Notes: generated from the letters alone by a model not told the origin. A stretch of 64,000 nucleotides of DNA from Candidatus Brockarchaeota archaeon (GCA_017601395.1 JAFNIQ010000002.1:6990-70989), one strand, 5' to 3'. Counted from the stretch's first letter, positions 7,114-59,161 are shown. Numbers and translations are program-made.

Positions 7114-8193
7114 TTGCTTGAGGCAGTAGCTATGACGAGCGGTTATAAAAAGGCGTTCTGGGTGAATCCGAGGCCTATTGCTCAAAACCCTGAGAAACAT
7201 GTTAGAGAAATTGTGGAAATGGGTGCAGACGAGATTTTTCTGCTAAGCATAGATGGTGAGGGGGCCCTCTACCCAGCCAAGTTTTCAGTTGTTGCAAAAG
7301 GAGCTGCTGAAAGGAGCTTGATAGGAGACATTATAAGGGAGGCGAAGAGAAGTGGATTAAAGGTTCACGCTTGGGTGGTTGCTTTGAACAAGCCGAACGA
7401 GGAGCTTGCTGCTAAGAGGAAGGACTGGTTTGTAGTCAGCAGGGAGGGGAAGAGCTGTGTTGATAACCCGCCTTATGTAGAAAGCTATAAATGGCTTTGC
7501 CCGTCGAACGATGATGTTAAAAGCTACTTCACTGGAACGATTCAGGAGCTCATGGAGATTTATGACTTGGATGGGGTTCATTTAGACTACATTAGGCTTC
7601 CAGATCTTTTCCTTCCAGAAGGATTAAGAGAAAGATATGGGTTGGAAAAGGGGATAGATGTCTACAGAGAGAAGTTCGACTTCTGCTACTGTGAAAAATG
7701 TAGAAACGGGTTTAAAAAAGATTTTGGCATAGATCCTTTCGGAATCAGGTTCGGTTCGAGAAAATGGTACGAATGGCATGCATGGAGAGCTGAAAGGATT
7801 ACTGAAATAGTTAAAAACTTCCATAGGACTGTGAAAAAATATGATAATACCATTGAGACTTCAGCCGCTGTTTTCGCAACCCCGGGGTATGCGTACAGGA
7901 TCGTTTTCCAAAAGTGGTGCGAATGGCCGCTTGACAGTTTCGAACCAATGATATACCATGAATACTATGGGAAAAACATAAGGTGGATTGGCGAAGCAGT
8001 CATGGAGGGTGTTTCCTGCAGCAAAATGATAGTCGCCGGAATACAGTTTGAATTCTTAAGGAGCGGAAGGGATGTGGAGGAAGCGGTGAACGTAGCGTTA
8101 GAAAAAGGCTCCAACGGGGTTTGCTTCTTCCTATACCCGTTGCAGCATCCTGAGCTGAAGGATGCGGTGAAAGACGCGTTTTCAAGGTTCTAA
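7114..8193 (+). CDS. glycoside hydrolase-like protein (GHL10/DUF187-type TIM barrel)
   Basis: Family resemblance to the GHL10 TIM barrel (HAWVVALN .. DGVHLDYIRLPD). The true start may be the internal Met (MTSGYKKAFWVNP). Confidence 0.5.
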   Translation: MLEAVAMTSGYKKAFWVNPRPIAQNPEKHVREIVEMGADEIFLLSIDGEGALYPAKFSVVAKGAAERSLIGDIIREAKRSGLKVHAWVVALNKPNEELAAKRKDWFVVSREGKSCVDNPPYVESYKWLCPSNDDVKSYFTGTIQELMEIYDLDGVHLDYIRLPDLFLPEGLRERYGLEKGIDVYREKFDFCYCEKCRNGFKKDFGIDPFGIRFGSRKWYEWHAWRAERITEIVKNFHRTVKKYDNTIETSAAVFATPGYAYRIVFQKWCEWPLDSFEPMIYHEYYGKNIRWIGEAVMEGVSCSKMIVAGIQFEFLRSGRDVEEAVNVALEKGSNGVCFFLYPLQHPELKDAVKDAFSRF

Positions 8194-11689: not shown

Positions 11690-14600
11690 CTATGCTACGG
11701 TGAAGCTGTAGCTTCCAGATAGGACCCTGTATACGACGCAGCCCTCTCTAATACCGATCAGCTTAACACATTCAGATTTTTCAGCTGGCTTCCCACTCTC
11801 CATCACCCTCTCCGGCTCACTTGTCGGAACATATACTAATGCTGAAGTATTTGCCGGGATGACGAGCTGCAGGTGGAAAGCGTCGCCGGAGAACCACCAG
11901 TCTACTGAAACCGTTCCACGGATAGACTCGTAGCTCGCGTGGACCCGTCCCAGTTCTCTCGAAGGCTTCGGCTTGATGATGATGCTTTTAAAACCTGTGT
12001 CTTCAACATCTATTCCTGCGACGGTTGAGAAAAGCCATTCTCCCACGCTTCCGAAAGCATAATGGTTGAAAGAGTTCATCCCTGGTTCATGTATGCCCTC
12101 TTCAGTCATGCTGTTCCACCGCTCCCAGATGGTTGTCGCGCCAAGCTTCACCGTGTAGAGCCAGGACGGATAGGTTTCCTGCAGGAGAAGCCTATAAGCT
12201 AAGTCGGTCTTGCCGAACTTGGTGAGAGCCTGCATGAGGTGCCGCGTCCCAACGAATCCTGTGGACAGGTGCCACCCGCGTTCCTCAATATCCTTAACTA
12301 GGTGTTTCAAAGCCGTTTCCTCCATCTCTCTGGGAAGCAGTTTTAAATCAAGCGCTAAAGCATAGCATGTCTGTGTTTCGCCTTTTATCTGTCCATCTGG
12401 TTGAACATATGCTTTATGGAATGCTGTTCGAATATTGTTGAATAATTCTTCAAAGCGTTTCGCATCATCCGTCTTTCCTATTTCTCGGGCCATCTCAACC
12501 ATGAGCTTAACGACGTAAGCGAAATAGGCTGTTGCAATCACGTCCTTAGGGGTTTCGGGGCCCGCTGGAACCCAGTCGCCATACCCTATCTCCGGCCGCA
12601 GGAAGCCTTTACTGTTTTCAACAAGGTAGTTAATGTAACGGGCCATTTTCTCGTAGTAAAGCCTGATTACCCTTGTGTCGCCGTAAGTACGCCAAACCAC
12701 ATAGGGTATGATTATCCCTGCATCGCCCCAGCAGGGTGTACCAAAGCCTGCGCCAGTCGCGGGTGCGACGTCAGGATAGGCTCCGTCTTCCCTCTGGCTG
12801 TCGTTTAAGTCGATTAACCATTTAGTCATGAAGGCGGAAATATCGGCAAGATAGGCGGCGGTTCTGGCAAAGATCTGTGCATCCCCCGTCCATCCCTGCC
12901 GCTCATCGCGCTGCGGGCAATCCGTCGGCACCTCGAAATAGTTGCCGCGCAGGCTCCAAAGGATGTTTTGCACGAGCCTGTTTAAAAGCGGGTTTGAGCA
13001 TCTGAAATCTCCGACTATTTGAATATCCGTGTGAATAACGATGCCCGTCACAGCATCTATTGGCGGCTTACCCGGGTATCCTGTGACCTCAACATACCTG
13101 AAGCCATGATATGTGAAACGCGGCTCAAAAAACTCCTCGCTACCGCCTTTGCAAATATAGATATCGGTGGCTCTAGCCCCCCTAAGGTTTGCAGTATGCA
13201 GGGTGCCATCAGGGTTAAGGACCTCGGCGTAACGGAGCATTATCCTTGTTCCCGGCTCCGCGTTTCTAACTCTCAGCCTTATGACGCCAACCATGTTCTG
13301 ACCGAAATCGAATACGAAAACTCCGGGACTGATCTCCCTCACCGACTTGGCTTGCAGCTCCATAGTTTTTCTGACGGGCTCCCCAGGATGGGCTGTTAGT
13401 TGCAAACCTACATTATCCACCGTCACGTTTCCCCAGTTATCGTCCTTGAACCACGGTTCATCCCATCCCCGGATCTCGCGCCTAGCGTCATAAGTTTCAC
13501 CCATATAGTTATCTGCTTCTAGAATTGGGCCATACGTTACCTTCCAACTCTCATCGCTGACGACAATTTGACTCTCGCCATCATAATATTCTATCTCCAG
13601 CTGCAATAATAGGCGTGGCCCGCGTCCAAACCTGTTCAGCCTACCCCAACCTCCTTGATATCCAGAATACCATTCGCTGTGCAGAATCACTCCTATTGCA
13701 TTCTCCCCATGGTTAAGAAGACTCGTGACATCGTAAGTACGATAGTATGCACGTTTCCGATAGTCGGGCCATCCCGGTATGAAATAATCTTCAGTAACGC
13801 GTTTACCATTTAAGCGGAGCTCGCAGCTCCCTAGGGCACTAACATATATGAGAGCTCGCTTAACCTTTTTCTCAATGGTGAAACGCTTTCTGAAAAATGG
13901 TGGTGGCCGAACATATGGGGGCCTTGTTGCTAAGATTCCCCACGGCTTAGTCTTGAAGTCGCCCAGTTCAAATGCACTCATCCAGCCGGAGTCGTCGAAA
14001 TCAGGTTTCTCCCAGCCCTCCTCAGAAGTTTCGGAGGATTTCCAGCTTGCGTCAGTAACGAGTATGAATGGCTTGCCGTCCTCAAACTCAATTATTACTT
14101 TCCCGAGCAGGCCTGCGGAACCGCCGGTGTTTGTGGCCTTAATCGCGAAAACATTAAGACCAGCATGCAGCAGATCAGTGATCTTAATCATCTGTGGACG
14201 TTGCCAAGCATAGGGCTTACCATTGCTTCTACCTGCTTCCTTCCCGTTTACGAAAAGCACAAACTGATCGTCAGCAGTAATCAGGAAGATTCCCCTCAGC
14301 ATTTTCCTGTCTGATGGCAGACTTATTGTTCGGCGGAAATAACGGTCCGCAACAGGGGCTTCTTTAGCGGGATCGCCCTCTTTAAACCATATCCACTTAC
14401 ACCCTTTGAAATTCGGCTCCTCCCATTCAGCATACTCGTCATATCCGATCCACCTCGCCTTCCAATCGTTCGGCTCAAGCAGGCCCATTGTCCAGTATGC
14501 GGGCTCGCTCCACTCAGAGGGTCTTCCCCGCTTATCCCAGACCCGCACTTTCCACCAGCACTCCATTCTGGATGAAAGTGTTTTCCCAGCGTATGTGATT

Positions 14601-14866
14601 TGGCTTGTCTCTTTAGACTGGACTTTCCCGGTGTCCCATAGGTCACCAATATCTTTCTCAAGGTTTAACCTTGTGCTTGAAACAATAATCTGATAGGCTG
14701 TTTGAAACTGTCCTCTTTCAGATGACTCGACGATCCAGCTTAACCTGGGTTTTAAAACGTCTATTCCCAGAGGGTTGACCCTGTACTCGCAACGCAGCTT
14801 TCTAACCTTTAAACCAGGCTTTCTCCCTTCTTCAACAGGTTTAGACAAGTCTTCGGTCAACTTCAA
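11690..14866 (-). CDS. alpha-L-rhamnosidase (GH78)
   Basis: 1058 aa. The N-terminal RCEYRVNPLGID...PRLSWIV...QTAYQI and the ARWIG.. region are hallmark GH78 (Bac_rhamnosid) sequences. Confidence 0.9.
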   Translation of the reverse strand: MKLTEDLSKPVEEGRKPGLKVRKLRCEYRVNPLGIDVLKPRLSWIVESSERGQFQTAYQIIVSSTRLNLEKDIGDLWDTGKVQSKETSQITYAGKTLSSRMECWWKVRVWDKRGRPSEWSEPAYWTMGLLEPNDWKARWIGYDEYAEWEEPNFKGCKWIWFKEGDPAKEAPVADRYFRRTISLPSDRKMLRGIFLITADDQFVLFVNGKEAGRSNGKPYAWQRPQMIKITDLLHAGLNVFAIKATNTGGSAGLLGKVIIEFEDGKPFILVTDASWKSSETSEEGWEKPDFDDSGWMSAFELGDFKTKPWGILATRPPYVRPPPFFRKRFTIEKKVKRALIYVSALGSCELRLNGKRVTEDYFIPGWPDYRKRAYYRTYDVTSLLNHGENAIGVILHSEWYSGYQGGWGRLNRFGRGPRLLLQLEIEYYDGESQIVVSDESWKVTYGPILEADNYMGETYDARREIRGWDEPWFKDDNWGNVTVDNVGLQLTAHPGEPVRKTMELQAKSVREISPGVFVFDFGQNMVGVIRLRVRNAEPGTRIMLRYAEVLNPDGTLHTANLRGARATDIYICKGGSEEFFEPRFTYHGFRYVEVTGYPGKPPIDAVTGIVIHTDIQIVGDFRCSNPLLNRLVQNILWSLRGNYFEVPTDCPQRDERQGWTGDAQIFARTAAYLADISAFMTKWLIDLNDSQREDGAYPDVAPATGAGFGTPCWGDAGIIIPYVVWRTYGDTRVIRLYYEKMARYINYLVENSKGFLRPEIGYGDWVPAGPETPKDVIATAYFAYVVKLMVEMAREIGKTDDAKRFEELFNNIRTAFHKAYVQPDGQIKGETQTCYALALDLKLLPREMEETALKHLVKDIEERGWHLSTGFVGTRHLMQALTKFGKTDLAYRLLLQETYPSWLYTVKLGATTIWERWNSMTEEGIHEPGMNSFNHYAFGSVGEWLFSTVAGIDVEDTGFKSIIIKPKPSRELGRVHASYESIRGTVSVDWWFSGDAFHLQLVIPANTSALVYVPTSEPERVMESGKPAEKSECVKLIGIREGCVVYRVLSGSYSFTVA

Positions 14867-31563: not shown

Positions 31564-32827
31564 ATGTGTAAAAAGAGGTTATGGATAGTTGCGACGATTC
31601 TCTTACTGGCTACTATAGTGCCTCTTGGAGCCATTTTCCTCCCATACCCTTATTCGCCGATTCGCCCACCGCAGGCGAACGATGCTGGTTCAGCACCGCA
31701 GGGAGTTCAGGAGGTTGTAAAGGCCAATAAACCGATTCACATTCAAGCTTTACTCTGAACTTGTTAAAGCTGAGAGCGGCAATATTTTTCTTCTCTCCTT
31801 ACAGCATCTTCTCTGCTCTTGCAATGACATATGAGGGTGCTAGGGGGAAAACCGCGGAGGAAATGAAAACGGTTTTCGACTTCCCGGAAAACAGTTTGTT
31901 AAGGCCGAATTTCGCCGCGATCCATAACCGTATTAATAAGGCTGCTGGAGAATACGAGTTGAGGACTGGAAACGCGCTCTGGGTTCTGAAGGGCTATCTG
32001 TTTCTTGAAGAATATTTGAAGACGGTTGAAAAAATACTACGGTGGGAAGGCTGAGGTTTTAGACTTTATTCGTAAAGCTGAAAAGTCGCGGGGAACAATC
32101 AACGTCTTCATAAAGGAGCAGACGAATCATAAGATTAAAGACTTGATCCCGCCCGGGGTTCTCAACGAGCTTACGCGGCTCGTCTTAACCAACGCTATCT
32201 ACTTCAAAGGCGACTGGAAGATAGCGTTCAACGAATCCCTCACCATGGAAGAGGATTTCTGGATAATTCTGAATAGAAGCGTGAAGGTCCAGATGATGCA
32301 TATGCATCCAAATGAAACAATAAGGTTCAACTTCGTTGATACGGGGGATTTGCAAATTCTAGAGCTGCCGTACAAAGGGGGTAATGTCTCTATGCTGATA
32401 ATACTACCGAAACATTGAGGCGGCAGAGTCGTTCCTAACGGCGGAGAAGCTTGAAGAGTATAGGGCTCAAATGAAGGAGGAGAAGCTGGATGAGATCTGC
32501 CTGCCGAAATTCGAGATTGAAACCAAATACTTTATGCGGGAGACTTTAAGCAGCTTGGGAATGCCTACCGTATTCACTGGGGAAGCGGATTTCTTGGGAA
32601 TGACTGGCGGAAGAGACTTGTTTATCAGCCAAGTTATTCACCAGGCTTACGTTAAGGTCGGTGAGAAGGGGACTGAAGCGGCTGCCGCAACCGCCGTGGT
32701 CATGAAGCTAACTGCCATACCGGAGACTAAAGTCTTTAGAGCAGACCACCCGTTCATCTTCATGATTCAGGAGAAGGAAACGGGAGCCATTCTCTTCATG
32801 GGAAGGATTAGCAATCCTACGGGATAA
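31564..32827 (+). pseudogene. serpin (serine protease inhibitor) pseudogene, split into four frames by four +1 single-base insertions in A/T homopolymer runs
   Basis: Signal peptide MCKKRLWIVATILLLATIV. Serpin helix A FKLYSELVKAESGNIF is in frame 2. FFSPYSIFSALAMTYEGARGKTAEEM is in frame 0. NAIYFKGDWKIAFNESLT and LELPYKGGNVSMLIILPK are in frame 1. The hinge/RCL EKGTEAAAATAVVM and HPFIFMIQEKETGAILFMGRISNP are in frame 2. The shifts lie near 31727 (aataaa), 31775 (attttt), 32035 (aaaaaa) and 32410 (aaa). Confidence 0.8.
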
Positions 32828-32947
32828 ATAGGGGAAACTAGATTTACTTAATTCTAAGTTTCGCAGAGAGATTCTGATTTTTCAACCATCTTGTATAAAA
32901 AATGCTGCTAAAGCTTTTTCAGCAGTTTTAAAAATATAGAGGAGAGC

Positions 32948-33451
32948 TTGGGAGGACGGGGAAAGATTGTTATAATCCTACTGGTTTCCGCTGTAGTTTT
33001 ACTCTGTTTTTGGGCATACTTCAACAATGGCGGTTCAAGGGTCACTGAGGAGTTTCAAAAGATGAGTACTGCAAGGATCCGGATTGTTAACGACGAGGGC
33101 CAGGTTATCGAGTTTGAGGTTAAGGTTGCGGATGAGCCTGATGAGCGTGCAGCAGGCTTCCAGAACATCAGTAGGAGCATCATTGAGAAGACTCTTATAC
33201 TGTTCATATTCCCCGATGAAGTTAACGGTTTATTCCATATGCGCAACGTTGAGGCAAGCCTAGACATAGCTTTCATCAAGGCGGACGGAGCCATAGTTGG
33301 GATCCTGCGCATGGATCCAAGCCCGACTAAGCTATATGGTGTGGATAAGTACTTCAAGTATGCCATTGAAGCTCCGGCAGGCTTCTTTAAGGAGAGAAAA
33401 ATAACACCTGAGCGATCCAGACTGATTGTCGACTCAATCCCGAAAGGCTGA
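32948..33451 (+). CDS. DUF192 domain-containing protein (COG1430-like), with an N-terminal signal anchor
   Basis: N-terminal TM helix, then VADEPDERAAGFQNIS...LFIFPDE...FHMRNVEASLDIAFIKADGAIVGI, which matches the DUF192 pattern. Confidence 0.55.
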   Translation: MGGRGKIVIILLVSAVVLLCFWAYFNNGGSRVTEEFQKMSTARIRIVNDEGQVIEFEVKVADEPDERAAGFQNISRSIIEKTLILFIFPDEVNGLFHMRNVEASLDIAFIKADGAIVGILRMDPSPTKLYGVDKYFKYAIEAPAGFFKERKITPERSRLIVDSIPKG

Positions 33452-33629
33452 TCCATAGACAACCAGATGGCTGATAGATGCGGGTGTAATAATTAGCGTT
33501 CATATTCTGTCTTGATTTCTCTAATTATAAACATTTTCCCAACGTCGAACTGCAATAGAAGCGTGTCTTTTCAAGATTTTAATTAAAAAATTTTATATCC
33601 ATCTGCCAGCCATATTAAAAGGAAGGGAA

Positions 33630-36629
33630 TTGGTAAGTAGGCGTGTAGGAAGTAATTTATTGCTCGTCGTTCTAATTCTCATCGCATTCTGTTTTTCAGC
33701 TATTTCCTCAGTAAGATGGATGCCTACTATAATGGTTTCTGGAACGCGATATGGTGAAATAGAATTAAATATTGGTTGTGGCAGCCCAAGTATATCATAC
33801 TTCGGGAACTACCTATTTGTTGAGCTTGATGGTTTTCATTATTTTGGTGAACCTGGCAATCCGGAGCTTCCGACTAAGTTTTTAGACGTGTTGCTTCCAC
33901 CCGATGTGAATACAACCACCATAGATATATGTGTTTTACGGGATGAAAGCTATGAGATGAATGTGACTGCAGAAGTAATTCCGGCGCCACCTTTGGCATG
34001 CGGTGAAGCAGTGGATTGGGGTATCGGCAAGGATATACAGAATGGTAAGAATCTTCTCGTATACGGGAGAGGAGAATATTATCCGGATAACGCTGTAGAG
34101 GTTTACCAGGTTTCTAATAGAGGAATATATGTGTTTGCAAGAATCCGGTATAATCCCATCCAGTATAACCCGTTAAAAGGGAGGCTTAAGATACATGAGA
34201 ATATATCTTTCAAGATCACTTATCAGCTTACAGGTAGACGAGCAGCCATTGTTAAAAACACGATAGTTGAAAAAATCGTTGAGAAACAATTTGTAAACTG
34301 GAATAGCGCTAAAGAATGGTATTTGCCGTCTTTTCCGGCATTGAACTCCCAGTACGATTATGTTATAGTCACTACGAAGGCTATAAAAACAGGAAGCATG
34401 GAGCTAAACAATTATGTGAATCATCTTCAGAACACTAGAGGCTTCAAGGTGAGGGTGATCACAGAGGATGATTACGGGCCGGAAACTGGGCAGCAGAGAG
34501 CAGTAAACATAAGAAACTGGTTGAAGAACAATTATCTAACCCTGGGGGTCAAGTATGTTCTTCTAATAGGCAATCCTGATCCAGATGACCCGAGTAATCC
34601 GTCTGACTCTTACGGTGATGTCCCAATGATGATGTGCTGGCCGAGGGTTCAGGGTTATGATACTGTGCCCACGGACTATTTCTATGCTGACCTTACTGGA
34701 AACTGGAATACCGATGGGGACAGTTATTATGGGGAATATGGTCAAGATACTGGCGTGGACTTCACTCCGGAGGTATATGTAGGAAGAATACCTGTTTACA
34801 ATGATGATTACGCTACGCTAGATGAGGTTCTCCGAAAGACGATGAGCTACGTGTTCTCAGGAACAGGATGGAGAAACAGGATTATGCTTCCAGTAGCTAT
34901 AAGCAACTATGCGAATGAAGATAACCAGGGCTGGCAAAGAACAGATGGTTTAGACTTGCCTAAATATGTGGTTGAAAACATTCTGCCTGGGGGCTGGACG
35001 CACTATGTTCTTTACGAGAGAGCTGGACGGGACCCGGTGCCTGAGGCTGCGCCATATTACTCAGCACCATTAACTAAGGCTAACTTGGTCAACGAGTGGA
35101 AGAAGGGTTACGGAGTGGTTTTCTGGTTCGGCCATGGGAGCAGCCAAGGAGCCTTCAGAAAGTATTGGAGTTTTGACGATGGTGACGGGGTGCCGGAGTC
35201 CGGCGAGATGAGTTGGCAATTATTCTTCGGCTCTTCTGATACTCCTGGATTGAACGGCTCCGCACCCTCATTCATATTCCAATGCTCCTGTAACAATGGT
35301 TATCCGGAGGATGAAAATAACCTTGGCTATGCTCTTCTTAAGAATGGTGCGGTAGCAACTGTTTCAGCCTCGAGGGTAAGCTGGTATATAGTTGGCTACT
35401 GGTGGCCCCGTATGCTTGCGGATAATGTTGAAATAGGGTACCGCTACGTTGAGAAACTGTTAAAGGATAAGCTTAGTGCAGGCGTAGCTCTCTACGAGGC
35501 TAAGGGGATGCTGCCTCATGATAGCAGTGTTTGGTGGATGAACCTGTTCTGCTTCAACCTTTACGGTGACCCAAGTCTCTCACTGTTCAACGCTTTATCT
35601 AAGATTACTGTCGACTCGGACCCACGGGGCTCAGGCCTCGTGAAGGTTGATGGACAACTTATCACGACACCTGTAGTCTTCACATGGGAGGAGGGCTCAA
35701 CCCACCTGCTGGAAGCAGTCTCACCCATGGACTTAGAGAATGGGACGAGGTATGTCTGGTATGGCTGGAGCGACGGAGGAGCCCAAAGCCACAATTACAC
35801 TGTTACAAGTTACAACACTACTGTAAAAGCCTTCTTCAAGAAACAGTATAACGTCACTTTCACGGTTAAGCCACTGAGCTGCGGAACCACATCGCCTTCC
35901 GGCTCGGACTGGTACAACGAGGGCTCAACAATACAAATATCCGCCATCGCTGACCCTGACTACGTCTTCAAAAATTGGTTTTCAAACACGTCGAAGATAA
36001 CTATAGCTGACCCCTATTTGCCGAACACTAATGCAACTATAGGCGGTCCGGGAACTGTGACGGCCAACTTCACTGTTACGGTTACAAGCTTAACGTTGAA
36101 AGTGGTGGACAGCATGGTTCAAACAGGAGTAGTAAATCTAACAGTCAAAATAATATCGCTTAACAACATTACTGGTGCAGGGTATGCGGTAGACGCCACT
36201 AATCCTCTAACTCTAATACCTTCTCCAGCAGACGGCTCCTGGGATTCAAGCATAGAGTACATCAGAATAAGCTTCAACGGTTCAACCTATGCCGATGGAT
36301 TCCACACGATCTACGTTAGGGCTAACGATACGGAGAATACGAGTAACTGGCTCACTTTACGTTTCCACGTCAGGAGTCTGGTTAAGAGGTACAACCTTAT
36401 CGCCCTAATCCTCAAACAATCTTCGGGATACTCGGCTGAAACGCTTGGGAAAGCGATAGGGCCGGAAGCAACGTTAATAGCAAGATGGGATATTGGAACG
36501 CAAAAGTTTAAAGGCTATTCGCCCGGCATCAGCAGCCCGGCGGACGACTTTCCAGTAGAGCAGGGCTTCGGATACTTCGTGTACTTGAATTCTCCGCGCA
36601 AATTCGTGGAGCTGGAGGTAGAGGGATGA
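33630..36629 (+). CDS. secreted peptidase C25 (gingipain-like, clan CD) family protein with a propeptide and C-terminal Ig-like/beta-sandwich domains
   Basis: Signal peptide. C25-propeptide-like segment GFHYFGEPGNPELPTKFLDVLLPPD. Catalytic His in VVFWFGHGSSQGAF and catalytic Cys in SFIFQCSCNNGY (clan CD His-Gly ... Cys dyad spacing). The C-terminal NLYGDP motif is shared with the 55109..59161 protein. 999 aa. Confidence 0.65.
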   Translation: MVSRRVGSNLLLVVLILIAFCFSAISSVRWMPTIMVSGTRYGEIELNIGCGSPSISYFGNYLFVELDGFHYFGEPGNPELPTKFLDVLLPPDVNTTTIDICVLRDESYEMNVTAEVIPAPPLACGEAVDWGIGKDIQNGKNLLVYGRGEYYPDNAVEVYQVSNRGIYVFARIRYNPIQYNPLKGRLKIHENISFKITYQLTGRRAAIVKNTIVEKIVEKQFVNWNSAKEWYLPSFPALNSQYDYVIVTTKAIKTGSMELNNYVNHLQNTRGFKVRVITEDDYGPETGQQRAVNIRNWLKNNYLTLGVKYVLLIGNPDPDDPSNPSDSYGDVPMMMCWPRVQGYDTVPTDYFYADLTGNWNTDGDSYYGEYGQDTGVDFTPEVYVGRIPVYNDDYATLDEVLRKTMSYVFSGTGWRNRIMLPVAISNYANEDNQGWQRTDGLDLPKYVVENILPGGWTHYVLYERAGRDPVPEAAPYYSAPLTKANLVNEWKKGYGVVFWFGHGSSQGAFRKYWSFDDGDGVPESGEMSWQLFFGSSDTPGLNGSAPSFIFQCSCNNGYPEDENNLGYALLKNGAVATVSASRVSWYIVGYWWPRMLADNVEIGYRYVEKLLKDKLSAGVALYEAKGMLPHDSSVWWMNLFCFNLYGDPSLSLFNALSKITVDSDPRGSGLVKVDGQLITTPVVFTWEEGSTHLLEAVSPMDLENGTRYVWYGWSDGGAQSHNYTVTSYNTTVKAFFKKQYNVTFTVKPLSCGTTSPSGSDWYNEGSTIQISAIADPDYVFKNWFSNTSKITIADPYLPNTNATIGGPGTVTANFTVTVTSLTLKVVDSMVQTGVVNLTVKIISLNNITGAGYAVDATNPLTLIPSPADGSWDSSIEYIRISFNGSTYADGFHTIYVRANDTENTSNWLTLRFHVRSLVKRYNLIALILKQSSGYSAETLGKAIGPEATLIARWDIGTQKFKGYSPGISSPADDFPVEQGFGYFVYLNSPRKFVELEVEG

Positions 36630-38515
36630 TGAAGAAGGCTTTCTACTTAGCCTGCATATTCATTCTATGTGGGATAATCTTAACCGTCATAAATTTCGTT
36701 AGGGCGCAGGTACCTGTAAACGTGTGGGGATATGTCTATATGCCTGATGGGACTCTTGCAGTCGGCGCTTCTGTTTCAATTTCTGGTGGAGGAGACTCTA
36801 AATCAACAACTACTGGAACCGACGGCAAATATGGGCCAGTTACGCTAACTGTTTCTTCTGTTCCCGTGAATATAGTCGTAAGTGCATCGAAAGACAGTTA
36901 TTCAGGTAGTGCATCTGCCATAGGCGAGGGTACGGTACAGATAGACATACATCTTTCAGCAGCGCCTCCACCCCCGCCTCCTCCGCCTTCCCCGCCACCA
37001 TCGAGAAAGCTGGTTAGTATCCAGCTTAGCGTCCCGAGCGAGGCTGCTGTTAACGCCAGTGTCAGGATAATTGGGAAGGTTAATCCAAGTGTTTCCCAAT
37101 TATACTTGAAGACTAGGGATCCGAAAAATATTCTGAATGAATATCAGTTGTCGGTTGCCTTAAACGGAAGCTTCTCGTTCGACTTTACGCCTACGATTTT
37201 AGGCGTCTATAGGATTTCAGCGTTTTTTCCTGGCGACTTAGAGTATGAGCCTGCTTCAACACCCGAGTACTCTCTTCGGGTGAAATCAAGGTCGATTCTT
37301 AATCTGACTTTAAGCCCGACCGTGGTGGTAGCAGGATTCGAGAACATTAGTATAAGCGGGAGGCTTTATCCTCCTAGTGTTCAAAACGTTTTACTCTACT
37401 ATTCCTTAGACAATGCTTCATGGATTCTCTTCGCCGAGTTGAATGCTACGACGGGGGTTTTATCAATAGTTTGGAAGCCGAGGGTTTTCGGAGACGTCTT
37501 CATAAAGGCAGAGTGGACTGGGAACGATACTTATACCGGCTCGGTTGCATACGGGAGGTTTCAAACAGTGTTGCCAAGCGTATGCATGTTGCGAGCATGG
37601 GTTGAGAACTCTCCAATCAGGATTGGGGAGGAAGTACGGGTCAACGGGGTTCTTATTGGTGTTGCGCATCCTGAAACCGCCGAGTTAACTATGCGTATTT
37701 ATAATGATGGGAGGGAGGTTGAAACCTTTAGGCTGAATCCTTCTCCAGACGGGGTTTTCACCGTAAGCTATAAGCCAGGGTCGCCCGGGGTCTATGTTCT
37801 GCTTCTCGAGGCTAGTGGAGTAAGATTGTTGAGGGCTAGCAATGTTACGACAGTCGTTGTCTTAGGAGAGGTGAAGCTTAGGGCGGTTAACTCCACAGGC
37901 GGACTACTGGGTGAAGCAGTAGTGGAGTTGAAGCATAATAGTGAAATTGCAAGCTCAGGAGCAGGTGAATTGAAAATCGTCCTGAATCTCGGGGATTACG
38001 AGGTCATCGTAAAGAGTGATGGCGCTGAAGTATTCAAGGGTTATCTCAGTCTAACGAATAAAGGTGTCTCCCTGATTTCCCTTAAACAGAGTGCAGAGTT
38101 TCCGCTTCCCATAACAAGCAGGCCTTTGATAATTGAATTGAGGACTGAAACCTATTTCCTGAACGTTCACGTGGTCAATGAATTCGGCGAGCCGATGGGA
38201 AACGTTGAAGTCAAGATAGCTCCATCTCCGCATCCCGTGACAAGTAGGCCTTTAAACGAATCATCGGTTTTTCAAACTACCGGGAGAACAGATGCTGAGG
38301 GCCGCATTGTTTTTTCAAACATTCCTGCTGGAAACTATACTGTCAGCACTTCTGCTGAAAGCAAGAATGTTAATCTTATTCGAAACGAATCTGTAACGCT
38401 AAAAGGATCGGGGGTTAACTTGAGGATAGTTCTTATTCTTGTCGCTGTTGCTTTAATAGTTTTATGCTTCACTACTTTCTACCTTGCTAGAAAGAAGCCT
38501 GTCATGGAGAAGTAG
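36626..38515 (+). CDS. cell-surface protein with carboxypeptidase-regulatory-like beta-sandwich repeats, a poly-Pro linker and a C-terminal TM anchor
   Basis: It overlaps the upstream stop by 4 nt. It has a signal peptide, TGTDGKYGPV (a CarboxypepD_reg-like motif), PPPPPPPPSPPPS, and a C-terminal hydrophobic helix plus RKKP. Confidence 0.6.
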   Translation: MMKKAFYLACIFILCGIILTVINFVRAQVPVNVWGYVYMPDGTLAVGASVSISGGGDSKSTTTGTDGKYGPVTLTVSSVPVNIVVSASKDSYSGSASAIGEGTVQIDIHLSAAPPPPPPPPSPPPSRKLVSIQLSVPSEAAVNASVRIIGKVNPSVSQLYLKTRDPKNILNEYQLSVALNGSFSFDFTPTILGVYRISAFFPGDLEYEPASTPEYSLRVKSRSILNLTLSPTVVVAGFENISISGRLYPPSVQNVLLYYSLDNASWILFAELNATTGVLSIVWKPRVFGDVFIKAEWTGNDTYTGSVAYGRFQTVLPSVCMLRAWVENSPIRIGEEVRVNGVLIGVAHPETAELTMRIYNDGREVETFRLNPSPDGVFTVSYKPGSPGVYVLLLEASGVRLLRASNVTTVVVLGEVKLRAVNSTGGLLGEAVVELKHNSEIASSGAGELKIVLNLGDYEVIVKSDGAEVFKGYLSLTNKGVSLISLKQSAEFPLPITSRPLIIELRTETYFLNVHVVNEFGEPMGNVEVKIAPSPHPVTSRPLNESSVFQTTGRTDAEGRIVFSNIPAGNYTVSTSAESKNVNLIRNESVTLKGSGVNLRIVLILVAVALIVLCFTTFYLARKKPVMEK

Positions 38516-53308: not shown

Positions 53309-55096
53309 TTACGTGGAAGCAGAAGGCGGTGGGGATGCGAGGGGAAGCTTCTTGCTCCTTCTTCTATACAATGAGAGCGTAGCAATCACAATAATCATTA
53401 CAGACATAATCCCTACCATCATATTAGTGTAGTCCTCGGAATACATGGCCCGCATCTCCAGCCTCGGCTCATATCCTGTGAAGACAAGACTGACAGAGCT
53501 ATCCGTAGAGTTCAGAAAACCAGTCCACTGTTTAAATACATATCTGGCGCCCAATAGGCCTAGCAGCCCAGGCATGTTCACGGAGGATGGTGCAATCAGA
53601 GCCGCCTCATCACCCTCCCTATATCTGCCTGAGCCGGATATCTCAACCGCGATGTTGGAGGAAACGTTTAGATTGTAACTCATCACAACCCTGATTAGTT
53701 TTACGGTGGAATTTCTCGCTTCCTCGTTGTCGGTAACCGTCAATGTGACCAAATAATCTCCCAGCCCATGATAGGAATGCTTCACATTAACACCTGAACC
53801 CTCCCCACCGTCTCCAAACTCCCATTTGTATAAGGATATTCTTCCATCAGGGTCGTTGGACTCTGAGGCATCAAATATCACATCTTCGCCCAAGCCTACC
53901 TTACCAGGCGTGCAGCTAAATTTCGCTATTGGCAAATAGTTCGTGCTGACCATGACCGCCATGAGTGGCGTCGTCTGGCTCTCGTACGAAACATATCCTA
54001 TGGCATAATATATGGCACCTTTCTCAGCCGAGGAAGTGTTCCAAGCTGAGGTGAACCTAAAAGAGCCTCCGGGCGCAAGGGATGAAAAATTAAGGTGGCT
54101 GCTCCAAACAGTATTGTTTCCCTTCTGCATCATGAAGATGCATCTCCCCGAGAGGGTCATCGAACCCTCGTTCAGGATGTCGAGCGAGATCTCCACCTGA
54201 TCCCCTATCTTAAAGTGTTTCGGTTCAACGCTAAAGCTTGTCACATTAATCAGAGGCCTGCCGAGCCTGAACCCGCAGGTCTTCCTGTCAAGCCAGTTTC
54301 CTGAGGTATCGTTCAACATAACCTCCACGTAATAGTCGCCTATCGGGAAGCCCTTGCTGTTCCAGATCATTGTGAATGATGCTTGTCCCACTACATTATG
54401 AAGCGTTCTTAAAGGTAAGCCATCAACAACCTTGTCTAAACCATAACACTTTATCAGAGTACTTGCAATGATATCTCTGGCATCGCCTGAGTTGTTAAGC
54501 AAAACGTTAATTGTAACCTCCTCTTGAGGATCATAGACTGGCTTTTCCGTATCAGCATTGAGTATTGAAACTGTCGAAAATATGTAGGTTACATCAAACT
54601 CGTAGTGCTTATAATATCTGACTTCAGTTGTTTCAGAATCATAGTAAAAAGGATATATAATTATAGTGAGCGTGGTAGTGCCATCGGGATTCATCGATAT
54701 GGACCAATGGTAATCTTCATTCGGATACCAGTCTTTGTCTTCGTTTGAAAATGGTCTATTAGAAGATGAACGGTTTTGCATCGTCACGATTGGCAATTTC
54801 AATCCACTATCTGTTACAAGTCCACTACGCTTTCTTTCGACTACCGTCTGAACCCGGTATCCTCTAGGATAATCAACTGAAACAGAGTAGAAGGGAATCC
54901 TTGGCTTACCTTCTACAAGCAGAATATGTCCTCCGGGGATTCTAACGTAATCGAAATCAGCGATCTTACTTACTTCGTAATCAGGTATCAAAATTTCCAG
55001 CATTGAGGGTGGTTCAGTACTGTTAACTTGAAGCACATTAAAGATAGATAGGAAAAGAATAATACTGAAGAGCAGCCACCAAAATCTTTTAATCAT
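53309..55096 (-). CDS. secreted or membrane-anchored protein with a C25-propeptide-like N-domain and a PKD domain
   Basis: Signal peptide. GGHILLVEGKPRIPFYSVSVDYPRGY aligns with the propeptide segment of the 33630 peptidase. PKD domain DPDGRISLYKWEFGDGGEGSGVNVKHSYHGLGDYLVTLTVTDNEEA. C-terminal TM anchor plus RRRSKK. Confidence 0.6.
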   Translation of the reverse strand: MIKRFWWLLFSIILFLSIFNVLQVNSTEPPSMLEILIPDYEVSKIADFDYVRIPGGHILLVEGKPRIPFYSVSVDYPRGYRVQTVVERKRSGLVTDSGLKLPIVTMQNRSSSNRPFSNEDKDWYPNEDYHWSISMNPDGTTTLTIIIYPFYYDSETTEVRYYKHYEFDVTYIFSTVSILNADTEKPVYDPQEEVTINVLLNNSGDARDIIASTLIKCYGLDKVVDGLPLRTLHNVVGQASFTMIWNSKGFPIGDYYVEVMLNDTSGNWLDRKTCGFRLGRPLINVTSFSVEPKHFKIGDQVEISLDILNEGSMTLSGRCIFMMQKGNNTVWSSHLNFSSLAPGGSFRFTSAWNTSSAEKGAIYYAIGYVSYESQTTPLMAVMVSTNYLPIAKFSCTPGKVGLGEDVIFDASESNDPDGRISLYKWEFGDGGEGSGVNVKHSYHGLGDYLVTLTVTDNEEARNSTVKLIRVVMSYNLNVSSNIAVEISGSGRYREGDEAALIAPSSVNMPGLLGLLGARYVFKQWTGFLNSTDSSVSLVFTGYEPRLEMRAMYSEDYTNMMVGIMSVMIIVIATLSLYRRRSKKLPLASPPPSAST

Positions 55097-55108
55097 TATA
55101 ACGTCACC

Positions 55109-58100
55109 TCAATCTCCAAACTTCGGGTCTCCGTATAGGTTGTAGTGATAGGCGTATACCAACCATGCGGTATTCACACGGATCAAGTGTCTTTTCGACA
55201 GGGCAAAAGCTTTTCCAATCGTGCGATAAGTCCATTCTGCACCATAAAGCTGATAGTGGAACTCGTCAGACTCGTCGCCAACGCTGATAGTTGCACCCAT
55301 GTATATTGCTGCACCATTCTTCAGAAAGGCTTCAGATATACTAATGTCACCAATATCCGTAGTCTCGTAGTAGCCTGTTGAGCAGGCAGCAGCAGAAACC
55401 ACAGGCGCACTGTTGCCAAAGGTAAGGGGGTGTCCTGGAAGGTCAGTATACAGCTCTGTACTGCCGCACCAACCTATGAACGCGTCAAGACAACACGCCC
55501 AGCTTCCCGGGCCACCGTGGCCAGCAAATACGATGATATCCTTTCCCTGTGCCGCTTCCTTGATTTGATACCCTCTTTCCGATAAGGCCCTACAATCACT
55601 TTCATAAATATTGTAGGGAAGTAAAAGTAGTGCTCCTCCTGAGATTCGAATACCGAAACGTACTGCTTCAATTATTTCAGCATCCTCTTTACTTATTAGT
55701 GTATGTAGAGTGGCCAGATCCATGGGAGGATGATTCTTGATGCAAGGAGCGCCGTCTAACGTATGACCTGGTGCTTCCAGGCAATTGTAAACTCCCACTA
55801 AACGACTTAGACTACCATAATTCGTTACCAGTCGACGGAGCTCTGATGGCGGTTCTGGAGTAGGAGTATCGGGATCCAGATCCCAATACGTGCCTAATAT
55901 GTAAAGTGCCTCACGGAGTAGGTTAACTTCAGTATCATAGTACTCGGTATGCCGTAGCGATACGCTAGCCCCCTGAAAAGTATGAAGAAGATCTGCTAAG
56001 ACATGACCATTCCGCACCCAAACCTCCTCCCAGGGCCCAGCAGGCCCAGTAGTAACCAGGGCATCAGAACGGTCAAATTCCCTACGGCCGATTGCTACGT
56101 CAATACTGGTTATGATAGGGGTTTTTAAATTTCTAGCAGTATCGCCCACGATCCTGCCCACCATGATATCTGGAAAATGATCGTTATAGCAAGTATCTGA
56201 ATACGGATTGTCGCTGAGCGGAATACTTACATTAAGAATGACCCTGTTGAAAGAGGGAACGATCTCCGTTTCTCCCACGATTAGAACATAGGCATCCCTG
56301 TCTCTCTCAGGATTCGGGTCTCTGAAAACGGGAGAAAGCCTACTGGCCCATGCTCCTGAAGGCGAGATGAATTTCTTGATCTCGTGGGCTGTTAATTCTC
56401 CTCGCAAGTATCCCAGGACCCCGCTCTTAAGCCTAGCCAGTTCCGCCATCTCGACCAAGAGAGAATTCACCCCGTCTTCATCATCTGGGTTGCGGCTGAA
56501 CAATCTTGAAGGATGCGTAATAATTATGTAGTCTGCACTTCTGAGAACCGTCGACAAATCTCCAGGGTGATATCTCAACTGGAAGCTATGTCCGTAATTC
56601 GTGCCGCCGCATGAGAAGCTCACAGATGTATCGAGCCAGCCGAATATGTAGCAATCGTCCGGAATGGTTGGAGCAAACAGTATGGGCACAGCAAAATACT
56701 GGAGTGTTGCAACACCTCCAGGCGGTAACGTGGCTTCTCCCGGTGGTTTGAAAATAACGGTGCTAGTCCAAAACGACGGTACGAACCTTACGCTCATGAA
56801 TGCTGTGTGAGGAATCACTTGAAACCCGCAAACATCATCGCGGAGAGTAAGATTGTACAAAGTCTCCGTTCCTATATTCCTTACGAACAGTGTTACAAGG
56901 TATGTCGTCTGGTAAATATCGTGCCTTACCACATTCCTCGTGACGTTGACGCTGATAATCCTATATTCGAGAGGAGGCGGTGCCCATTCGAAGCGCAGGA
57001 TGCTGGCTCTTATGCTGTCGCGACCATAGTTGCCCAAGTCGTCCCATGCCTTGACCTCTATCACGCACTCAGAGCCAGGTTCAAGCCCCGTCGTGTTCCA
57101 GAGGTGAGTGAACGAAAGGCTACTTGTCCGAGGTTCCGTGACAACCTCCCTCCTGAGGAAATCGTAGCGAAACGGAGAATACTCCCACCTCCTAACTAAC
57201 GCGCCGTCTATGTAGAGCTCAGCTTTCTGAATGTGTCCTGCGGGTGTGGCATGATATTCCCTGTCCTGAATTAGAGCCTCTATTCGAACAAGTCCGTGTA
57301 CCGGCCCCCCATCGCTGGGGCTAACTATCCGCACATCCGGTGGATTCGTGTCTGGAAGCGGGTTGGCGATCGTACCGTTTTTAACGTCAAAAGCCCTGTT
57401 TCCAGCTGTATCAAAAGCTGTCGCGTCGAAACTGTGGACCCCGTTGGGGTAGAGGGTTGTGTTGCAAACCCAGAAGTAGGGCGGGGAGAAATCTATAAAC
57501 TTTATCGCTTTATCTATAGAGAACATCACGCCTCCCACACCAACGTTATCGCTGGCGTGGGCCAAGATGTTTACGACGCCGACAAGTCTCTCCGGCAGGA
57601 GCAAGGTTACTGAGGGCTTCTCCTCATCCGGCGGGGACGCCGTTTCGAAAACCATGGTCTTGCTTACGGCAGAGCTCCCACAAATATCGTTCGACTTTAC
57701 GTAGAACCTGTAGGTTGTCCTCGGCTTTAATCCCGTAATCCTTAACGCATGGTCTTTCACGAGGTTCGGGTCGTAAACGGTTTTCTCCTCTCCGGTGGAA
57801 CGGTCGCTGTAAACAACCATGCTGTCGCTATTCTTATTAGTAACCCATTTTATGGTCGCCGAGTCCTGAGTAGTGCTCACGGCACTTGGCCCAGATGTGA
57901 TTAATATAGGAATGGGATAAGAGATGCAGGTCTTCTCGAGACAGTTGTTTTTCTCATCTGACTCCTTAATTTGGTTGAAGTTATCCACACAGGTCTTTAC
58001 TGTAATGTTGTGACACTCCGGCCACTTATAGTCCTTAAACCAGGATTCTAAGTTCTCTCCTGGCTTCAGGTCGACTCCAACAGGGTCGTGGGCAACCTCC

Positions 58101-59161
58101 TTACCATCCACGTAGAGCGTTGTACTATGGTTTCCCTTCGCCAATTCGCTTCCAATATTCTTTATTGCATATCTTATCACGCTGTTGTTCCTGTCACAAC
58201 TTATCTCTGTGATTATCAGGTCCGGCAGGTTTTCCTTAAGCCACTTCTCCTCGAGACAGTTGTTTTCTTCACTCGACTCTTCGATGTCCTGCTCGCAATC
58301 GGCACAGACATTGACGATGTGCTCACCAGGCGTCGGCTGCCAAGCGTAGTTGAATACGCCCTCAGTCTCCTCACCGGGTTTAAGCACCTGCGTAATCGCG
58401 TGTTTCGCCACCTGCTTCCCGTCTATTGAAAGACAATTTCGGAAGCTCTTGGCAGGCATACCCGGCGGTGTGGTGGCAGCATCACCAATATTCTTTGCCT
58501 TGTAATGGACTAGGCCGTTGCTCTCCCATACGTCGGTTATAACGAGGTCTGGCAGAGGTTTAGTCTCTATTCTTGCCTCCGCCCAGACAGCCCAGTCCCT
58601 GTTTGAGGTCTGCCCGGCACCTACGTACAGGATGAAGTACCCCGTTTTACCGGCTAAGTAACCTAGGTCTTTAACTATTGGGTCAAGCTTTCCGTCATAG
58701 GTTGCTACGTGGCTTAAAACCGTATATGTATTCTGCTGCAGGTCTAGAAACCGCACTTCGAATATAACACCGTCTGTCCCAGTGGCTCCAGAGAGGAACC
58801 CCACTCTAGCTGTGAGTTGTACATTATTCGGCACAGTCTGTTGAGGATATCTGCCCATTATGTACCCGTTGCTAACCCACTGGGGGTGTGTTTCCAGAAC
58901 CCTACTCCACGTAGCTCCGTCTTCAAGAAGCGCGTTATTCACGTACTGTGCAAAGCCCCTGCTGTCTGAGGGGTCTCCGGGAAACGGTAAAGCCCCAGCT
59001 CCACTGCTCCATTGAGCCTCAGAAGCGTGATCAATGAAGTCATAGGCCGCGGATCCTGCCTGAACGCTGAGAATAATGTTGCTGATGAAGCTTGCTGAGG
59101 ACATTAGGATTAGGCATGTTGAGAAGTAGAATAGGCTACTTTTTAAAAAACTGATTTTCAA
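55109..59161 (-). CDS. giant secreted multidomain protein with CARDB repeats, an FN3 domain, Ig-like domains and a C-terminal peptidase C25-like (clan CD) domain
   Basis: Signal peptide. CARDB-like LPDLVITDVWESNGLVHYKAKNIGDAAT repeats. FN3 (TIKWVTNKNSDSMVVY...TGLKPRTTYRFYV). The C-terminal DIIVFAGHGGPGSW (His) and PVVSAAACSTGYYE (Ala-Cys) give the clan CD dyad, and it ends with NLYGDP. 1350 aa. Confidence 0.65.
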   Translation of the reverse strand: MKISFLKSSLFYFSTCLILMSSASFISNIILSVQAGSAAYDFIDHASEAQWSSGAGALPFPGDPSDSRGFAQYVNNALLEDGATWSRVLETHPQWVSNGYIMGRYPQQTVPNNVQLTARVGFLSGATGTDGVIFEVRFLDLQQNTYTVLSHVATYDGKLDPIVKDLGYLAGKTGYFILYVGAGQTSNRDWAVWAEARIETKPLPDLVITDVWESNGLVHYKAKNIGDAATTPPGMPAKSFRNCLSIDGKQVAKHAITQVLKPGEETEGVFNYAWQPTPGEHIVNVCADCEQDIEESSEENNCLEEKWLKENLPDLIITEISCDRNNSVIRYAIKNIGSELAKGNHSTTLYVDGKEVAHDPVGVDLKPGENLESWFKDYKWPECHNITVKTCVDNFNQIKESDEKNNCLEKTCISYPIPILITSGPSAVSTTQDSATIKWVTNKNSDSMVVYSDRSTGEEKTVYDPNLVKDHALRITGLKPRTTYRFYVKSNDICGSSAVSKTMVFETASPPDEEKPSVTLLLPERLVGVVNILAHASDNVGVGGVMFSIDKAIKFIDFSPPYFWVCNTTLYPNGVHSFDATAFDTAGNRAFDVKNGTIANPLPDTNPPDVRIVSPSDGGPVHGLVRIEALIQDREYHATPAGHIQKAELYIDGALVRRWEYSPFRYDFLRREVVTEPRTSSLSFTHLWNTTGLEPGSECVIEVKAWDDLGNYGRDSIRASILRFEWAPPPLEYRIISVNVTRNVVRHDIYQTTYLVTLFVRNIGTETLYNLTLRDDVCGFQVIPHTAFMSVRFVPSFWTSTVIFKPPGEATLPPGGVATLQYFAVPILFAPTIPDDCYIFGWLDTSVSFSCGGTNYGHSFQLRYHPGDLSTVLRSADYIIITHPSRLFSRNPDDEDGVNSLLVEMAELARLKSGVLGYLRGELTAHEIKKFISPSGAWASRLSPVFRDPNPERDRDAYVLIVGETEIVPSFNRVILNVSIPLSDNPYSDTCYNDHFPDIMVGRIVGDTARNLKTPIITSIDVAIGRREFDRSDALVTTGPAGPWEEVWVRNGHVLADLLHTFQGASVSLRHTEYYDTEVNLLREALYILGTYWDLDPDTPTPEPPSELRRLVTNYGSLSRLVGVYNCLEAPGHTLDGAPCIKNHPPMDLATLHTLISKEDAEIIEAVRFGIRISGGALLLLPYNIYESDCRALSERGYQIKEAAQGKDIIVFAGHGGPGSWACCLDAFIGWCGSTELYTDLPGHPLTFGNSAPVVSAAACSTGYYETTDIGDISISEAFLKNGAAIYMGATISVGDESDEFHYQLYGAEWTYRTIGKAFALSKRHLIRVNTAWLVYAYHYNLYGDPKFGD

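Follow-up and report, generated by a model that had tools for sequence, protein, structure and literature searches.

The window analysed here is a 64,000-nt stretch of DNA from a Candidatus Brockarchaeota archaeon (GCA_017601395.1, JAFNIQ010000002.1:6990-70989; positions are counted from its first letter). At 31564–38515 it carries a serpin gene, a DUF192 gene, the gene of a gingipain-like C25 peptidase and the gene of a membrane-anchored β-sandwich protein. The functional unit of this locus is the peptidase together with the downstream anchor protein. Judged from the sequences, the two genes form a cell-surface display cassette with a probability of roughly 0.55: the C-terminal module of the peptidase (CTD) would dock on the head domain of a membrane-anchored stalk. 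All four genes are present on the plus strand where a preceding sequence-only reading of this DNA had put them, as confirmed by a map of open reading frames (ORFs) and by Pfam. The strict pairing of the CTD with the head domain of the partner was not part of that reading.

For the 83 residues at the C-terminal end of the peptidase, neither Pfam nor NCBIfam has a matching family. An exhaustive HMMER search with this module returned 350 cluster representatives (E ≤ 1e-3); the consensus of the family is GWNLIGLPL...W....Q.Y.SY......F.I.PGEGYFVY. The CTD ends within 15 residues of the C-terminus in 131 of 149 retrieved proteins, and a tandem pair is present in most. It is carried by S8 subtilases, PcRGLX-like lyases, β-helix or disaggregatase-like proteins and LVIVD proteins.

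Hidden Markov models (HMMs) of the CTD and of the head domain were run on all fetched sequence, and genes on the same strand at a distance of no more than 400 nt were regarded as paired. Head genes were found in the window (1), in loci L001–L011 (11), in L092–L099 (8) and in L100–L131 (32). An ORF that ends in a CTD lies ahead of the head gene in 51 of 51 evaluable loci. The single exception, L117, is not evaluable, its contig being cut 104 nt upstream of the head gene. Elsewhere in the fetched sequence the head domain was not found. The head genes overlap or nearly overlap the CTD gene in a one-to-one relationship. Thus, the adjacency is strict from the side of the head domain; the reverse is not strict. 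The pair in the window has the complete cassette layout, with a cargo protein ending in a CTD and a next gene that encodes a signal peptide, the head, a proline-rich stalk and a transmembrane (TM) helix.

The cargo varies considerably. It comprises three C25 subtypes, S8 subtilases (773 and 1536–1670 residues), LVIVD propellers and a TCAF_N/DUF4350 protein. In L092 and L094 the cargo is a C25 paralogue (C25-B), the catalytic part of which is only 23% identical. L095 and L096 encode the TCAF_N/DUF4350 protein with 1909 residues, and the cargo of L097–L099 is an S8 subtilase with a BsuPI-like inhibitor gene after the anchor. Cassettes from a metagenome scan add further C25 and S8 types and LVIVD propellers. 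Several anchors (S8, TCAF and C25-B cassettes) contain a coiled-coil segment before the TM helix. The S8 arrangement at 1465–8199 of L097 (also present in L098, L099 and L120) consists of a CTD-ended subtilase of 1536 residues, a head/coiled-coil/TM anchor of 505 residues and a BsuPI-family inhibitor of 199 residues, which has an N-terminal TM segment.

When seven cassette types are compared, the CTD has a median identity of 52% and the head one of 65%, whereas the rest of the anchor reaches 30%. Between cassette types the synonymous sites are saturated (proportion of synonymous differences, pS, 0.6–0.9) with nonsynonymous divergence (dN) in the range of 0.10–0.57. Accordingly, recent gene conversion is ruled out and the conservation of CTD and head reflects selection. 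The pair has the appearance of a set of parts that can be reused to tether secreted enzymes to the surface of the cell. As far as searchable libraries and papers show, such a CTD/head cassette is undescribed.

C25 peptidase zymogen and anchor protein

The peptidase consists of a signal peptide, a prodomain, the catalytic domain, three β-sandwich domains and the CTD (Table 1). Its N-terminus is a basic and then hydrophobic signal sequence, and there is no TM segment. The C25 family model PF01364 is matched over its full length (profile positions 1–374 of 374, E 2e-41, 142.9 bits with a cut-off of 23). The propeptide model PF08126 scores 25.4 bits (cut-off 22), and one Flg_new_2 domain (PF18998, InlB B-repeat-like) is present. 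The prodomain region finds the Kgp prodomain (5MUN) by phmmer at E 1e-3, and its profile matches 4IEF and 5MUN at E 1e-9. In Foldseek the top matches are the prodomains of RgpB and Kgp (E 2e-9, target TM-score 0.69). For the catalytic domain itself no structural match was obtained.

The catalytic domain was aligned to RgpB (1CVR) by means of a profile of 78 homologues. Taken as a whole this alignment is weak (E 0.016), but it brings the GHGS and SC.NG motifs into register. Among the 78 homologues the catalytic residues are retained in 76 (His), 76 (Cys) and 72 (Glu) sequences. Asp439, at most a tentative candidate for the S1-pocket Asp that bears on a preference for Arg or Lys at P1, is kept in 75 of the 78 and lies two positions off Asp163 of RgpB in this weak alignment. 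The AlphaFold model of the peptidase has a mean predicted local distance difference test score (pLDDT) of 85 and shows the three β-sandwich domains, with the final domain being less confident. Homologues are numerous (871 at E ≤ 1e-5). When each GTDB species was represented by a single genome, a scan gave 513 relatives, which are distributed over many phyla of archaea and bacteria. An exact-sequence look-up of the window peptidase returned no record. Sequence features thus predict a Sec-exported zymogen of a clan CD cysteine endopeptidase of family C25. This part of the sequence-only reading, an exported clan CD peptidase with propeptide and a His/Cys pair, is borne out by both Pfam models and by the RgpB-aligned motifs.

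For comparison at close range a related contig, L001, was used, which has 96% DNA identity to the window and carries an intact serpin gene. The ratio of nonsynonymous to synonymous divergence (dN/dS) of the peptidase is 0.19, i.e. the gene is under purifying selection; that of the anchor is 0.39. Synonymous divergence (dS) between the window (33630–38515) and L001 (8001–12859) is 0.17 for the peptidase and 0.11 for the anchor. Serpin, DUF192, NadA and NADK genes have values of 0.03–0.04. The higher dS of the cassette hints at recombination or at allele exchange of the cassette between strains.

The start of the anchor gene overlaps the stop codon of the peptidase gene. The overlap ATGA is read directly from the sequence and is preceded by a GGAGG-like sequence. 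In the anchor protein a signal peptide, the head and a poly-proline stalk are followed by five β-sandwich domains; the C-terminal TM helix comes next, and the tail is basic. Translational coupling of the peptidase to a membrane-anchored β-sandwich protein had been proposed from the sequence; the ATGA overlap, the poly-proline run and the TM helix agree with it. The CarboxypepD_reg model scores 51.7 bits on the anchor (cut-off 32.3), and PF13620 scores 35 bits on the head consensus. In the AlphaFold model (pLDDT 82) the protein is all-β, with six sandwiches between the signal helix and the C-terminal TM helix. Only 21 homologues were found, and all of those with an organism name come from metagenome-assembled genomes (MAGs) of Thermoproteota-type (TACK) archaea. 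The invariant columns of the alignment cluster in the head domain, which is the most conserved part. A relationship to α2-macroglobulin or other thioester proteins was considered and rejected. In Foldseek C5, C3, TEP1, CD109 and A2ML1 are matched at E 1e-14 but with a TM-score of only about 0.15, a generic resemblance between tandem β-sandwiches, and the protein of 629 residues has no thioester domain, no CxEQ motif and no bait region.

The closest relatives of the peptidase, the anchor and the serpin are found in MAGs from hot springs and vents that bear the label Candidatus Brockarchaeota or Thermoproteota. The window itself contains a second, distantly related C25 locus on the minus strand (53309–59161). 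Its C25 protein (1350 residues) has a signal peptide, two CARDB domains, Big_7 and FN3-like domains and a C-terminal catalytic part. The gene located 12 nt 3' of it (53309–55096) encodes a protein of 595 residues that has a signal peptide, carries a PKD domain and ends in a C-terminal TM anchor. The CTD and the head domain are absent from both proteins. A propeptide-like start of the 595-residue protein was discarded (BLASTP E 0.71, no PF08126 match at E ≤ 5).

Table 1. Features of the locus and of its products, with positions in the window.
Feature	Position	Strand	Support
Four short serpin ORFs	31564-32827	+	ORF map of 29-41 kb
Serpin pseudogene: N-terminal signal anchor, Pro-rich linker, 370-residue serpin body	31564-32827	+	PF00079
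Serpin signal-anchor ORF	31564-31758	+	ORF map
Serpin fragment, PF00079 profile positions 23-109	31761-32054	+	Pfam
Serpin fragment, PF00079 profile positions 105-228	32026-32418	+	Pfam
Serpin fragment, PF00079 profile positions 256-370	32471-32827	+	Pfam
DUF192 (COG1430) protein, 167 residues, N-terminal hydrophobic anchor	32948-33451	+	PF02643
C25 peptidase precursor, 999 residues	33630-36629	+	PF01364, PF08126, PF18998
Gingipain-type prodomain, residues ~40-235	33747-34334	+	phmmer, profile, Foldseek
Catalytic domain, residues 244-652	34359-35585	+	profile alignment to RgpB (1CVR)
Glu430	34917-34919	+	aligned to RgpB Glu152
WFGHGSS motif	35124-35144	+	
His502	35133-35135	+	aligned to RgpB His211
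QCSCNNG motif	35280-35300	+	
Cys554	35289-35291	+	aligned to RgpB Cys244
CTD, residues 917-999 (last 83, ~80 residues)	36378-36626	+	no Pfam/NCBIfam family
Anchor protein, 629 residues	36626-38515	+	ORF map, CarboxypepD_reg match
Head domain, residues 27-112, CarboxypepD_reg fold	36704-36961	+	conserved columns, PF13620
Poly-Pro stalk	36962-37003	+	sequence
C-terminal TM helix, residues 599-623, then ARKKPVMEK	38420-38494	+	AlphaFold model, sequence
DUF5518 small glycine-rich membrane protein, 123 residues	38553-38924	+	PF17647, E 1.5e-9

Possible roles of the C-terminal module and its partner

In the proposed mechanism the peptidase would be exported as a latent zymogen with an inhibitory N-terminal prodomain, and the catalytic center formed by Glu430, His502 and Cys554 would become active after zymogen activation. 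The anchor is predicted to be a type-I membrane protein, which carries its head on the poly-proline stalk above the β-sandwich domains and is held by the C-terminal TM helix. The CTD may dock non-covalently on the head of the co-translated anchor. By this docking the active peptidase would be held at the cell surface and away from the membrane, where it might degrade external proteins for a peptide-using heterotroph. The same type of head/stalk/TM partner would then serve S8 subtilases, other C25 peptidases, LVIVD propellers and the TCAF_N protein, all of which end in a CTD. A modular display system of this kind in Brockarchaeota-like archaea, with the CTD of varied secreted enzymes docking on the head of a co-translated anchor, is a tentative extension and has somewhat less than an even chance of being correct.

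Several observations weigh against docking as the role of the pair. The CTD is modelled at low confidence (pLDDT 46–69). It occurs without an adjacent head gene in 5 of 72 other C25 loci, and many tandem-CTD proteins, some of them bacterial, have no head gene beside them; the function of the CTD is therefore not exclusive to the head partner. The archaea that supply the 51 pairs form a narrow group from hot springs and vents, and many of the pairs are orthologous, so that the number of independent observations is about seven, the number of cassette types. Adjacency would also fit a chaperone, a maturation factor or a regulatory partner. Along these lines the CTD could be a general secretion, folding or cell-wall-binding domain, with the anchor acting as chaperone, regulator or S-layer component. 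Besides the wide and often tandem occurrence of the CTD, this is in line with the Foldseek neighbors of the anchor, which are generic MG/Ig-like β-sandwich chains and one S-layer protein. Nevertheless, such a role appears rather unlikely. The head gene accompanies the CTD gene one-to-one, on the same strand and with (near-)overlap in all evaluable loci, and the strongest constraint across cassettes is on the head and not on the rest of the anchor. Furthermore, an anchor is missing from the cargo proteins themselves; it is the partner that brings both a stalk and a TM helix.

The C25 enzyme could alternatively be a processing or sortase-like peptidase comparable to PorU; it would then cleave or attach the downstream surface protein or other CTD-bearing proteins and would have no nutritional role. 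PorU belongs to family C25, and the window peptidase weakly matches the NCBIfam sortase model for type IX secretion (T9SS; E 4e-11). Its gene is tightly coupled to that of a surface protein, and the CTD family resembles a sorting domain in its position at the C-termini of many secreted proteins. However, the match to the PorU model NF033707 is partial and reaches 41.3 bits with a cut-off of 420, which places the peptidase outside that family. The same anchor type follows S8, LVIVD and TCAF_N genes in loci that have no C25 gene; the anchor is thus independent of C25 activity. The C25 enzyme carries the CTD itself, i.e. it behaves as cargo, and Archaea are not known to have a T9SS. A PorU-like role is therefore quite improbable.

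A variation on the proposed display cassette is seen in two of the five C25 loci that have a CTD but no head gene, L015 (5211–9366) and L016 (6827–11082), where C25 peptidases of Methanobacteriota/Thermococci MAGs have tandem CTDs. The next gene encodes a protein of 409 or 433 residues with a signal peptide and an immediately following proline-rich stalk. It also contains CARDB-like and helical regions, and a TM helix lies at its C-terminus. It has no head domain and may represent a different anchor family in the same use.

The upstream serpin and DUF192 genes

PF00079 matches three of the serpin fragments with E-values of 3e-19 to 3e-39, and jointly these cover profile positions 23–370. Four frameshifts divide the gene into four ORFs and a fifth indel lies at the last codons; a complete serpin fold in a single open frame is absent. 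The L001 orthologue (5994–7259) is intact with 421 residues and has 97% nucleotide identity. Compared to it the window serpin differs by +1A at 31729, +1T at 31785, +1A at 32029, -2 at 32409 and +1G at 32823. All five indels sit in short homopolymer runs, and in a related contig, L104, several genes are frameshifted together, which is typical of an error-prone assembly. Sequencing or assembly errors in a gene that is really intact are nevertheless a very improbable explanation. The serpin has 5 indels in 1260 nt, whereas there is no internal indel in ~15 kb of neighboring coding sequence; its indel density equals that of intergenic DNA (7 in 1216 nt). The dN/dS of 0.66 is the highest in the region (housekeeping neighbors 0.02–0.27). 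Moreover, relatives have different lesions of their own. A 1-nt deletion in L005 cuts the signal anchor off from the serpin body, and an internal deletion of ~1.1 kb in L006 leaves a remnant of ~100 nt that joins the N- and C-terminal codons. The window serpin is thus a real pseudogene, as had been recognized from the sequence, and the gene has been broken three times independently in the clade (window, L005 and L006). L104 is not counted as a fourth loss because its peptidase and anchor genes are split in the same contig. Intact serpins of 397–421 residues are present in L001, L002, L004, L007, L009 and L010.

The serpin family has a hinge of the inhibitory type. The hinge consensus that permits insertion of the loop (P15 Gly, P14 Thr, Ala-rich P12–P9) is found in the window fragment, EKGTEAAAATAVVMKLTAIPE, and in the whole family. 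The best solved match of the intact orthologue is SERPINB3 (clade B serpins, E 2e-85). More than 100 homologues are 63–73% identical, ~420 residues long and share the signal anchor, the proline-rich linker (FPYxPxQPP) and the reactive loop M-[KRE]-L-T-A. The family is spread over Pacearchaeota, Woesearchaeota, Aenigmarchaeota, Patescibacteria, Bathyarchaeia and Brockarchaeota, with 63–69% identity across these groups. Such uniformity across phyla suggests wide horizontal spread and a common target. In the four contexts inspected (Pacearchaeota, two bacterial and one hot-spring metagenome contig) there is no C25 gene, no DUF192 gene and no common neighbor; since the homologues sit alone in unrelated contexts, the serpin looks like a widespread, horizontally mobile, stand-alone membrane-anchored gene. 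A search outside the clade for a conserved gene that accompanies the serpin gave none, the genes downstream of it in L084, L086, L088 and L090 being unrelated. In one Pacearchaeota genome the serpin adjoins a DDE transposase.

The sequence-only reading had interpreted the serpin as the peptidase's own inhibitor and had included DUF192 in the module. Accordingly, the serpin would be a dedicated cross-class inhibitor of the C25 peptidase, forming with DUF192 a regulated proteolysis module that has lost its inhibitor in this genome. The genes are co-oriented, all products are extracytoplasmic, and the order serpin, DUF192, C25 and anchor is found in at least 10 related loci. The hinge (GTEAAAATAV) is inhibitory, and the S8 cassette with its BsuPI-like gene illustrates that inhibitor genes do adjoin such cassettes. 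Inhibition of a C25 enzyme by a serpin is possible in principle, since CrmA with its P1 Asp replaced by Lys inhibits Kgp, i.e. a serpin can block a gingipain if P1 fits (PMC4138498).

Wider comparison, however, weighs against a dedicated pair. In L001–L011 the recurrent order is GFO oxidoreductase, serpin, DUF192, C25, the 629-residue protein, DUF5518 and a divergent T2SSE-type ATPase. Flanking NAD-biosynthesis genes recur as well, and a neighborhood of at least 18 kb is collinear. The gene order therefore is plain collinearity within one Brockarchaeota-like clade, and the synteny with relatives that retain an intact serpin gives no support to a dedicated pair. Of 79 C25 loci fetched, 72 lie outside the clade; within 7 kb of these 72, tblastn and HMM searches found neither a serpin nor a DUF192 gene. 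Both genes flank the C25-A type of this one clade only and are absent from the C25-B, C25-C, S8, LVIVD and TCAF cassettes. Serpins with the same loop stand alone elsewhere, as described above. Between the serpin and the peptidase lie two intergenic regions, and each of them contains an A/T-rich promoter-like sequence. The peptidase remains intact and under purifying selection where the serpin is broken, and it has a latency prodomain of its own. A dedicated serpin–C25 module is thus unlikely. The upstream serpin is probably an unrelated, decaying neighbor and not part of the cassette. Should it have a target, this is at least as likely to be an S8 subtilase as the C25 enzyme because related genomes carry S8 cassettes. 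The locus is a known kind of archaeal exoenzyme accompanied by a decayed serpin, and the inhibitor link had been over-read.

DUF192 is a clade-specific neighbor, too, and its inclusion in the module is not sustained. The assignment itself is clear (PF02643, E 1.1e-17, 64.4 bits with a cut-off of 27). The closest solved structure is 3PJY, a 'hypothetical signal peptide protein' (E 3e-4), and a literature search on DUF192 found no functional information. The gene is present in 11 of 11 clade loci. In L007 (~6636–6640) and L100 (~3640–3644), which are independent assemblies, it contains the same in-frame TAG (GAG to TAG, '...HMRNV*ASLDIAF'), and the serpin is intact in both. Accessory genes of the locus thus decay in different lineages.

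The DUF5518 gene is the 3' neighbor in 10 clade loci and in this clade only; it was not found 3' of the other cassette types, and it is uncertain whether it belongs to the functional unit. None of the five proteins matches an anti-phage defense family of PADLOC. A scan for sigma-70 promoters and terminators gave no enrichment over shuffled sequence, the sigma-70 model being inappropriate for archaea. In the DUF192–C25 intergenic region, 86 bp (33453–33538) are missing from L001. The spacers of L002 and L004 are longer, which suggests a deletion in L001. At 11690–14866 on the minus strand the window encodes a GH78 α-L-rhamnosidase of 1058 residues in which all five domains of the Pfam architecture are present. 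Such an enzyme fits the polysaccharide-degrading way of life that has been described for Brockarchaeota (PMC8065059).

Comparison with known surface systems

Among known systems the peptidase is closest to two gingipains of Porphyromonas gingivalis, RgpB and Kgp (MEROPS family C25, clan CD). In addition to the full-length family match they have in common with it the homologous N-terminal latency prodomain (4IEF, 5MUN) of an exported zymogen, the catalytic Glu, His and Cys, which come in the same order and align, and the β-sandwich domains that follow the catalytic domain. In contrast to the gingipains, the window peptidase has an archaeal host, for which no T9SS is known. The T9SS C-terminal sorting domain is replaced by an unannotated module, the catalytic domain has large insertions, and there is a dedicated membrane-anchored partner gene.

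Exported gingipain-like C25 peptidases are known from sediment archaea (Thermoprofundales/MBG-D and Bathyarchaeota), where they were predicted to be secreted and interpreted as detrital-protein-degrading enzymes (PMC6461988, PMC6752024). In one report, exported C25 peptidases rank among the most abundant predicted extracellular peptidases of anoxic sediments (PMC6752024). The window peptidase is 41–54% identical over ~60% of its length to many C25 peptidases of this type; unlike those hosts, its own belongs to a Brockarchaeota-like clade. The sediment accounts list peptidases and, in their accessible text, mention neither a C-terminal module nor a coupled anchor gene (PMC6461988, PMC6752024). 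The suggestion that the combination had not been described in Archaea consequently holds in part. Exported archaeal C25 enzymes were known; for the four-gene order no description was found, and it appears to be a lineage-specific synteny.

The closest functional precedent is tetrabrachion of Staphylothermus marinus, a stalk that non-covalently holds the subtilisin-type protease STABLE off the membrane and for which a role in peptide supply was suggested (PMC5744192). In both cases an archaeal membrane-anchored stalk is combined with a secreted protease; no sequence relationship is claimed. Tetrabrachion, a protein of the S-layer, is a tetramer of 70 nm; the anchors described here have 420–630 residues, a CarboxypepD_reg head and a proline stalk. 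For the window cassette the corresponding binding is proposed on the basis of the genes. In its logic only, the cassette also resembles the cohesin–dockerin pairs of cellulosomes, where a small C-terminal module on varied enzymes is matched by a module on a cell-anchored scaffold. The cohesin and dockerin models of Pfam have no match in the peptidase, the CTD, the head or the anchors. Furthermore, there is one anchor per cargo gene instead of a scaffoldin with multiple cohesins, and the cargo consists mostly of peptidases.

Archaeal serpins are known, and Tk-serpin, aeropin and miropin are inhibitory serpins of prokaryotes. The family upstream of the cassette shares with them the full Pfam serpin fold and the inhibitory hinge motif. 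It differs by its N-terminal signal anchor and proline-rich linker, and by the window copy being a pseudogene. The locus illustrates how a gene order, when seen in one clade only, can point to a protease–inhibitor pair for which a wider comparison finds no support.

If the proposed docking is correct, the C-terminal tail and the anchor would constitute a testable mechanism by which archaea retain exoenzymes at their surface. The system would be a genetically portable counterpart of tetrabrachion/STABLE or of cohesin–dockerin pairs. The two modules might additionally provide a thermostable protein–protein pair for display applications. The profiles of CTD and head would serve as a sequence marker for tethered enzymes in metagenomes, and the CTD family would mark surface-tethered exoenzymes in many uncultured archaea and in some bacteria.

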